Below are positions 16,843 through 17,401 of a stretch of 22,610 nt of DNA, one piece after another. A program made the translations under genes and the position numbers. The notes under the pieces were generated by a model. The model did not search any database. It was not told where the DNA came from and was given only the letters and a program-made list of their open reading frames with translations. The stretch is taken from the IMG/VR virus record IMGVR_UViG_2526164650_000003; one strand, 5' to 3'. The stretch comes from a virus (Duplodnaviria; Heunggongvirae; Uroviricota; Caudoviricetes). How positions within the stretch are numbered: position 1 is the stretch's first letter; each line of letters opens with the position of its first letter.

Positions 16843-17198
16843 GCACACTCCAGCTCTGTGATTTTTATCCCCAACCGACCACCAGGAACAGGCAGTCCGC
16901 GCACAATATTGGTTTCATCAAACTGCTCGTCGTCGATAAGCAACCCCGCATGTGTCAGTGCATCCAGTGGTGCTTTCAGGATATTGTCCAGGTCACGACG
17001 CCGCTTATCCGGTGGCTCTGCAATAATCTTTATCGCCAGTCTTCCGGACAGGCTTAATTTCAGTCGCTGCTGACGGACAATAAGCGCCACATCCCGGCGA
17101 TAACGCTCACCGGCTTTTGATACAAAATATGTGCTGCCACGACGTCGCCAGTAAGTATTCACCGTCGGCGGATAAGGTAAAATAAACTCATGGCGCAT
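16839..17198 (-). CDS. rusA: RusA-family Holliday junction resolvase
   Basis: 119-aa ORF with RusA hallmarks (PPDKRRRDLDNILKAPLDALTHAGLLIDDEQF resembles E. coli RusA [31 protein letters not shown]). Nin-region position upstream of Q. Confidence 0.85.
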   Translation of the reverse strand: MRHEFILPYPPTVNTYWRRRGSTYFVSKAGERYRRDVALIVRQQRLKLSLSGRLAIKIIAEPPDKRRRDLDNILKAPLDALTHAGLLIDDEQFDETNIVRGLPVPGGRLGIKITELECA

Positions 17199-17335
17199 CA
17201 GCGCAGCACCTCCTGCACCAGCTTTTCAAACTTTCCGACTCTGGTTTCCAGCTCTGCCACACAGTCCACCAGCTCATCTACTGCTTTCTGTGCGCGATGC
17301 TTCGCCTGCATCAGTTCCCGAAGCGCGGGTACCAT
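17198..17335 (-). CDS. Small 45-aa ORF (or 3' remnant of a truncated nin-region gene) coupled to rusA and abutting the IS600-like end
   Basis: MVPALRELMQAKHRAQKAVDELVDCVAELETRVGKFEKLVQEVLR; its stop overlaps the rusA start (TGATG). The ORF-track 91-aa version extends into IS sequence and is an artefact. Helical, charged composition. Confidence 0.3.
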   Translation of the reverse strand: MVPALRELMQAKHRAQKAVDELVDCVAELETRVGKFEKLVQEVLR

Positions 17336-17401
17336 ATTGAGGTAGCCTGAGTTTAACGGACACTCCTTCCTGAAATAGAATGGCATCAGAAGGAGCCAAT
17401 A

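Follow-up and report, generated by a model that had tools for sequence, protein, structure and literature searches.

Deletions of adjacent DNA are frequent for insertion sequences of the IS3 family and leave no target-site duplication (PMC11708052). For example, 14 of the 83 IS movement events in the E. coli long-term evolution experiment were adjacent deletions, and all 14 were due to IS150 (PMC11708052). Insertion sequences have also been described upstream of a phage resolvase gene. In DLP12, a defective prophage of E. coli K-12, the quiescent rusA gene is activated by an upstream IS2 or IS10, as found in the rus suppressors of ruv (PMC1636454). A third known system is bacteriophage phiP27, whose gene L20 (NP_543072.1, hypothetical protein) belongs to the family PHROG 2565. 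The locus analysed here touches on all three.

The window, by which the whole stretch of 22,610 nucleotides from IMG/VR record IMGVR_UViG_2526164650_000003 is meant, represents a defective lambdoid prophage that lies integrated beside yecE in Shigella flexneri. Comparison with related prophages makes it very probable that a gene remnant and a copy of IS600 in this prophage lie at a deletion junction, at which replication and immunity genes amounting to about 10 kb have been lost. The features around the junction are as follows.

16153..16848, minus strand: late antiterminator gene Q (Pfam Phage_antiter_Q, E=1e-89; PHROG 304), overlapping the end of rusA
16839..17198, minus strand: rusA, Holliday-junction resolvase, intact at 119 codons (Pfam PF05866, E=1.9e-15, residues 8-107)
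17198..17337, minus strand: 3' remnant of an 85-codon gene (codons 41-85, the stop codon and 2 nt of codon 40)
17338..18600, plus strand: IS600 (IS3 family), 1263 bp, TGAGGTAGCC...GTACACCTCA
17402-17704, plus strand: orfA of IS600, with a premature TAG at 17432-17434
17740-18558, plus strand: orfB of IS600 (Pfam rve/HTH_21 domains)
18601..18810, plus strand: 3' remnant of a 130-codon gene of the early-left operon (codons 62-130 and the stop codon, no start codon)
18871-19059, plus strand: 62-aa ORF, a surviving early-left-operon gene right of the junction
19056-19883, plus strand: gene for an SPFH/Band-7 protein (Pfam Band_7, E=6e-31)

To the left of IS600, the minus strand reads as an ORF of 45 codons plus stop (17198..17335; ATG at 17335-17333, TGA at 17200-17198) with the translation MVPALRELMQAKHRAQKAVDELVDCVAELETRVGKFEKLVQEVLR. 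Its stop codon and the rusA start (ATG at 17198-17196) overlap by one base as TGATG, as an earlier note made from the sequence alone had described. The same note placed the ORF next to the IS at a spacing of 3 bp; the adjacency stands, and the spacing is corrected to two intervening bases (17336-17337), the A of the ATG being the third base outside the element. On the evidence of its sequence, this ORF is the leftover 3' stump of an 85-codon phage gene and as such a pseudogene fragment. The remnant is identical at 139 of 140 nt to uninterrupted alleles in E. coli FDAARGOS_944 and in S. sonnei contigs, and the alignment ends exactly at 17337, so that the break at 17337/17338 is also the start of the IS. 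The intact alleles match up to 17337 and then continue for 40 codons more, which bears out the first of two alternatives proposed earlier, namely that a larger gene was truncated at the IS. In the intact protein, the residues before the breakpoint are ...TKDAIRKD and those after it MVPALRELMQ.... The comparison of C-termini that had been suggested gives the same answer, as the 45 aa correspond to residues 41-85 of the phiP27 L20/PHROG 2565 member and match PHROG 2565 (E=9e-17) at the C-terminal end of the profile only, while an 85-aa relative matches it with E=1e-32. The ATG of the ORF is the internal Met41 of its parent, which has methionine codons at positions 1, 6, 20, 41 and 49; its place at the junction is coincidental. 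No Shine-Dalgarno-like motif comparable to the AGGAGG of rusA precedes it, and the stump is presumably functionless. A word-indexed protein search with the 45-aa query returned 23 matches, many of them partial, and the cluster look-up and the tblastn search of phages were more informative.

The intact gene has 85 codons, or 80 from its second ATG, and occurs in E. coli prophages, in S. sonnei and in phiP27 (as L20). By tblastn, full-length homologs were found in 33 phage records, including phiP27 and many Stx1a- and Stx2a-converting phages, and always adjoin a helicase or replication gene. In intact relatives the gene sits between a DnaB-type replicative helicase, whose end it overlaps, and rusA, and annotated intact relatives have the same 1-nt overlap with rusA. 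The helicase lies beside the parent gene in FDAARGOS_944, GB089, phiP27 and metagenome contigs, and is absent from the window. The parent was therefore a larger phage gene, as proposed, but the label of nin-region gene given to it was loose, since it belongs to the helicase module. PHROG 2565 and 2539 have no known function. A Pfam search of the parent protein gave only sub-threshold matches to coiled-coil families, and a sequence search of the PDB gave only designed helical proteins (E>6e-4).

Broken copies of the parent gene are common in E. coli prophages that carry no IS at this point (locus L017, 3885-4140; L019, 3862-4140; L002, 4329-4587), and for this reason the gene appears to be dispensable in prophages. 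A 44-aa protein (MPALREL...) recorded as complete in some E. coli assemblies without an IS was considered as a naturally short form of the gene and rejected. These loci are broken full-length copies, and their alignment shows that the N-terminal half is disrupted, either by a +1 frameshift within an A-run or by a deletion of 23 nt.

The IS600 copy is full length and 99.2-99.4% identical to three annotated IS600 copies. Its imperfect inverted repeats lie at about 17338-17364 (left) and about 18574-18600 (right), with the termini TGAGG...CCTCA; the transposase genes are on the plus strand, and the left inverted repeat faces the 45-codon ORF. At codon 11 of orfA, the GAG of other copies is TAG (17432-17434), and the length of 1263 bp, compared to 1264 bp in other copies, reflects one A missing after the orfB stop. 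As such, this copy is mobile only if complemented in trans. The left flanking triplet is TAT and the right one CAA. No direct repeat was found at the IS ends, including when the ends were shifted by one or two bases. Four control IS600 copies of 1264 bp each, three in E. coli FDAARGOS_944 and one in EIEC CFSAN029787, have perfect 3-bp duplications (CAT, GTG, AAG and CAT) under the same end definition, and the missing duplication is therefore real and not an error of end definition. The left end at 17338, the unmatched flanks and the lack of a target-site duplication had all been observed earlier, and the controls uphold them; correcting the ends brings no 3-bp repeat to light. All five IS600 copies in yecE-type prophages (L004 1755-3018, 12822-14085 and 16414-17677; L015 7332-8595; window 17338-18600) are co-oriented, with the transposase co-directional with the early-left operon, though in a set of five this could be a coincidence (about 1 in 16).

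The DNA to the right of the element belongs to the early-left operon. From 18601 onward it shares 98% identity with prophage DNA in E. coli VR50, beginning inside WP_000566776.1 at codon 62, and the full-length 130-codon protein matches PHROG 1886 (unknown function) with E=2e-59. The remaining 69-codon fragment is in frame with IS600 orfB and separated from it only by the orfB TAA (18556-18810), a shared frame that is due to chance. In VR50 the 130-codon gene is followed by the 62-aa ORF, the SPFH gene, an ORF6N protein and eventually xis and int, and the window continues likewise. The order of 130-codon gene, 62-aa ORF and SPFH gene is common to VR50, FDAARGOS_944, CFSAN029787 and phiP27. As the plus strand showed no terminator-like site from the IS up to the SPFH gene, the surviving early-left genes could be transcribed by read-through from the IS promoter.

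The size and content of the loss can be estimated from undeleted relatives. The prophages of EIEC CFSAN029787 and E. coli FDAARGOS_944 lie at yecE-yecN-cmoAB-torZ, as in the S. flexneri loci, and share with the window both the chromosomal site and the early-left genes (130-codon gene, 62-aa ORF, SPFH). In FDAARGOS_944, which has int next to yecE-yecN-cmoA-cmoB-torZ and also carries the 85-codon gene followed by rusA, both parent genes are intact or nearly so. The IS600 copies of these two relatives have the orientation of the window copy but stand at other positions, each with a 3-bp duplication, and both prophages keep the replication and immunity genes that the window prophage is without. 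The alignment of both flanks to an undeleted prophage, as the earlier note had advised, places the endpoints at codon 41 and codon 62. The flanks are colinear with positions 606 and 11564 of the FDAARGOS_944 locus (L004), a distance of 10,957 bp that shrinks to 9,690 bp when the IS600 and duplication carried by this prophage itself are left out. The relative behind this figure of 9.7 kb is a mosaic, with 95% identity on the left side and 92.5% on the right side, and the early region of the S. flexneri ancestor may have differed in content or length. In FDAARGOS_944 the stretch between the two points contains codons 1-40 of the small gene and codons 1-61 of the 130-codon gene, and besides these the helicase, a DnaC-like loader, two Rha-family regulators, a TumE-type toxin-antitoxin pair, a LexA-family repressor together with neighbouring genes, and several small genes of the early-left operon. 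The breakpoints thus bracket helicase, loader, Rha regulators and the repressor/cro region, in agreement with the earlier proposal that the immunity and replication region had been deleted.

The junction event is common to all S. flexneri loci retrieved. In ten out of ten, both junctions (TAT / IS600 / CAACGCCATC) agree and the remnant is identical. At least 1000 contigs carry the exact 45-aa product, named there as an S. flexneri 'bacteriophage protein', and the exact RusA protein is likewise named as S. flexneri and occurs in complete genomes including CP000266, which we take to be S. flexneri 5 strain 8401. The TAG in orfA is shared by the window and six of the ten loci and orfA is intact in the other four; this nonsense mutation is thus younger than the junction event. 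In CP000266 (L010), 10 bp of the right flank (CAACGCCATC) are left before another IS3-family element and unrelated phage tail genes, which indicates a further rearrangement beyond the right end of IS600.

Turning to how the DNA was lost, we infer both the order of events and the mechanism from the end product. The first step would have been a normal insertion of IS600 at one of the two sites, and the DNA flanking it would then have been removed, leaving the left end of the element against codon 41 and the right end against codon 62. One flank would no longer be the original one, which would explain the absent 3-bp duplication. The last step may have been a transposase-mediated IS-adjacent deletion, which is slightly favoured because it needs fewer events and to which we would give about an even chance.

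Homologous recombination between two IS600 copies could have produced the same structure, and its probability falls a little short of even. In this case, the 85-codon gene (at TAT) and the 130-codon gene (at CAA) would each have received an IS600 by an independent insertion in the same orientation, and RecA-dependent recombination between the two copies would have deleted the interval, leaving one hybrid copy with one flank from each site. Recombination between IS copies is a standard cause of missing duplications (PMC11708052). The material for it exists in relatives, as the FDAARGOS_944 prophage has three same-orientation IS600 copies within 16 kb and CFSAN029787 has an IS600 about 270 bp from the right breakpoint, but these copies sit at neither breakpoint. 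It also needs three events compared to two, and neither a single insertion nor a two-copy state turned up in the genomes searched. Intermediates were sought with probes for the two expected junctions (IS600 right end, TAT and the rest of the small gene; 5' part of the 130-codon gene, CAA and the IS600 left end). No match spanning either junction was found in 5,426 complete E. coli genomes, a set with almost no Shigella, and exact junction patterns gave zero matches in two scans of GTDB species representatives, which is a weak negative as these too hold almost no Shigella. One lead from the probes in EIEC was rejected, being an independent IS600 about 270 bp away with its own CAT duplication. 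Adjacent deletion and IS600-IS600 recombination fit the structure equally well, and the data do not separate them. The IS-mediated adjacent deletion put forward earlier is therefore right as to the deletion, and in its mechanism is one of two that fit. Recombination rivals only this inferred last step and not the reading of a gene remnant at a deletion junction.

It is improbable that an inversion or translocation mediated by IS600 brought together two flanks of separate origin, whether different prophages or distant sites. S. flexneri is rich in IS elements and its genome is rearranged, the DNA 10 bp past the right IS end in strain 8401 is replaced as described above, and the right flank is closest (98%) to the VR50 prophage at mlrA and not to yecE prophages. 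However, mosaic similarity of this kind is normal for lambdoid phages. The order and orientation of the flanks (Q, rusA and stump in one direction, early-left genes and xis in the opposite one) fit a single lambdoid prophage, and the window runs into the same yecE-side genes as its undeleted relatives. When the window was searched for the lost part of the 85-codon gene (TATCTTTACGGATAGCATC, allowing up to 3 mismatches), no match was obtained, so there was no local inversion.

Another form of single-step loss, either insertion of IS600 into a double-strand break during the deletion or an activity of the IS-excision-enhancer (IEE) type, has a very low probability. Both have been described for IS elements including those of the IS3 family (PMC11708052; PMC9397093), but nothing in the window bears on either, and their end product is indistinguishable from that of the routes above. 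The iee gene is carried on SpLE1-type elements of STEC (PMC9397093), and an SpLE1-type element was not seen here.

It is still harder to maintain that the 45-codon ORF is a genuine small gene coupled to rusA, with IS600 merely inserted just upstream of it, which was the second alternative raised earlier and is rejected here as no homolog genuinely starts at Met41. The ORF does have an ATG start and a stop overlapping the rusA start, it is annotated in S. flexneri, and there are called ORFs of 44 aa in some E. coli prophages that lack an IS. Against this, the uninterrupted alleles read through the ATG from 40 codons upstream, Met41 is internal in every uninterrupted homolog, and the 44-aa calls stem from the frameshift or deletion described above. 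Met41 is also not conserved (residue 41 is Val, or the whole segment is divergent, in some homologs) and lacks a ribosome-binding motif. Furthermore, Q is the gene after the full-length copy in phiP27, whereas the gene after the stump is rusA. The overlap with rusA therefore reflects a module junction and is not characteristic of the family. Lastly, decay by point mutation of a duplication that once existed, or mis-set IS ends, is a general possibility with nothing beyond that in its favour and can be practically dismissed, as the same end definition gives perfect duplications in all four controls and the flanks are not contiguous but 9.7 kb apart in the intact relative.

The deletion has consequences for the genes left of the junction. 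With the PR-side promoter removed, rusA and Q are probably cut off from transcription and silent. In a crude consensus scan no sigma-70-like promoter site was found on the minus strand between 16829 and 19100, although a weak outward promoter in the left end of IS600 would be compatible with this result. A promoter-like site within IS600 (17353-17381) reads away from rusA, as do the plus-strand genes right of IS600 (18601 onward). The AGGAGG lies 10 nt before the rusA ATG, and translation of rusA would be independent of the stump since its own ribosome-binding site is kept. It is a long shot that the left end of IS600 gives weak outward transcription and thereby drives expression of the stump, the intact rusA and also Q. 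If this were true, S. flexneri would gain a second, constitutive Holliday-junction resolvase, the locus would resemble the ruv suppressors of E. coli K-12 in which an IS activates rusA, and the stump, by being retained, would preserve the ribosome-binding site of rusA together with its translational coupling.

Several other features were observed elsewhere in the prophage. Four tRNA genes stand in a row on the minus strand at 15667-15976, just downstream of Q (Met-CAT, Arg-TCT, Thr-TGT, Gly-TCC), in the position occupied by ileZ and argO in phiP27, and they were the only Rfam matches above gathering thresholds in 13000-22610. An IS110-family transposase gene (398 aa; 13771-14967) separates the Q/tRNA block from the genes for head-tail joining and tail. 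The lysis, terminase, portal and capsid genes are absent from the window prophage, which suggests a second IS-associated deletion. Near the end of the window, one end of an IS66-family element (GTAAGCGCCCC..., with IS66 domains by Pfam; to 22610) breaks into an IS3-family transposase fragment (21939-22313) at 22326/22327. In the S. flexneri loci L006 and L007 the IS3-family element is uninterrupted, and the nested IS66-family insertion may therefore be strain-specific.

For annotation, the value of these results is that the S. flexneri 'bacteriophage protein' of 45 aa, together with the headless 69-codon fragment across the IS, can be treated as a pseudogene fragment. Because the junction is common to all ten loci examined, it can also serve as a stable lineage marker of the cryptic yecE prophage. 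Loss of the immunity and replication genes locks the prophage in place, and the locus adds one more case of IS600-driven decay of Shigella prophages. This is ordinary prophage decay, an already known kind of event that raises no new biological question. Every part of the observation from which the analysis set out is present in the sequence, with small corrections only, and its interpretation was essentially right.

To summarize the comparison with the known systems, the IS150 adjacent deletions are alike in that an IS3-family element is kept at one end of a multi-kb deletion without a duplication, as here (PMC11708052). They differ in that the earlier insertion was observed in the time series of that experiment, whereas the event in the window is known from its end product alone (PMC11708052). 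The DLP12 rusA of K-12 likewise belongs to a decayed lambdoid prophage, with an IS shortly upstream and the phage promoter lost (PMC1636454). However, the K-12 insertions were selected for switching rusA on, while here the left end of IS600, with an inward promoter, faces rusA; the likeness is positional only, and nothing here indicates activation. The closest match is phiP27, as phiP27-type prophages use the same yecE attachment region as the window prophage, L20 has 94% protein identity to a full-length relative, and the stump represents the C-terminal 45 residues of its family. Where members of that family have 80-85 codons directly after a DnaB-type helicase, the S. flexneri prophage has kept codons 41-85 and no helicase.
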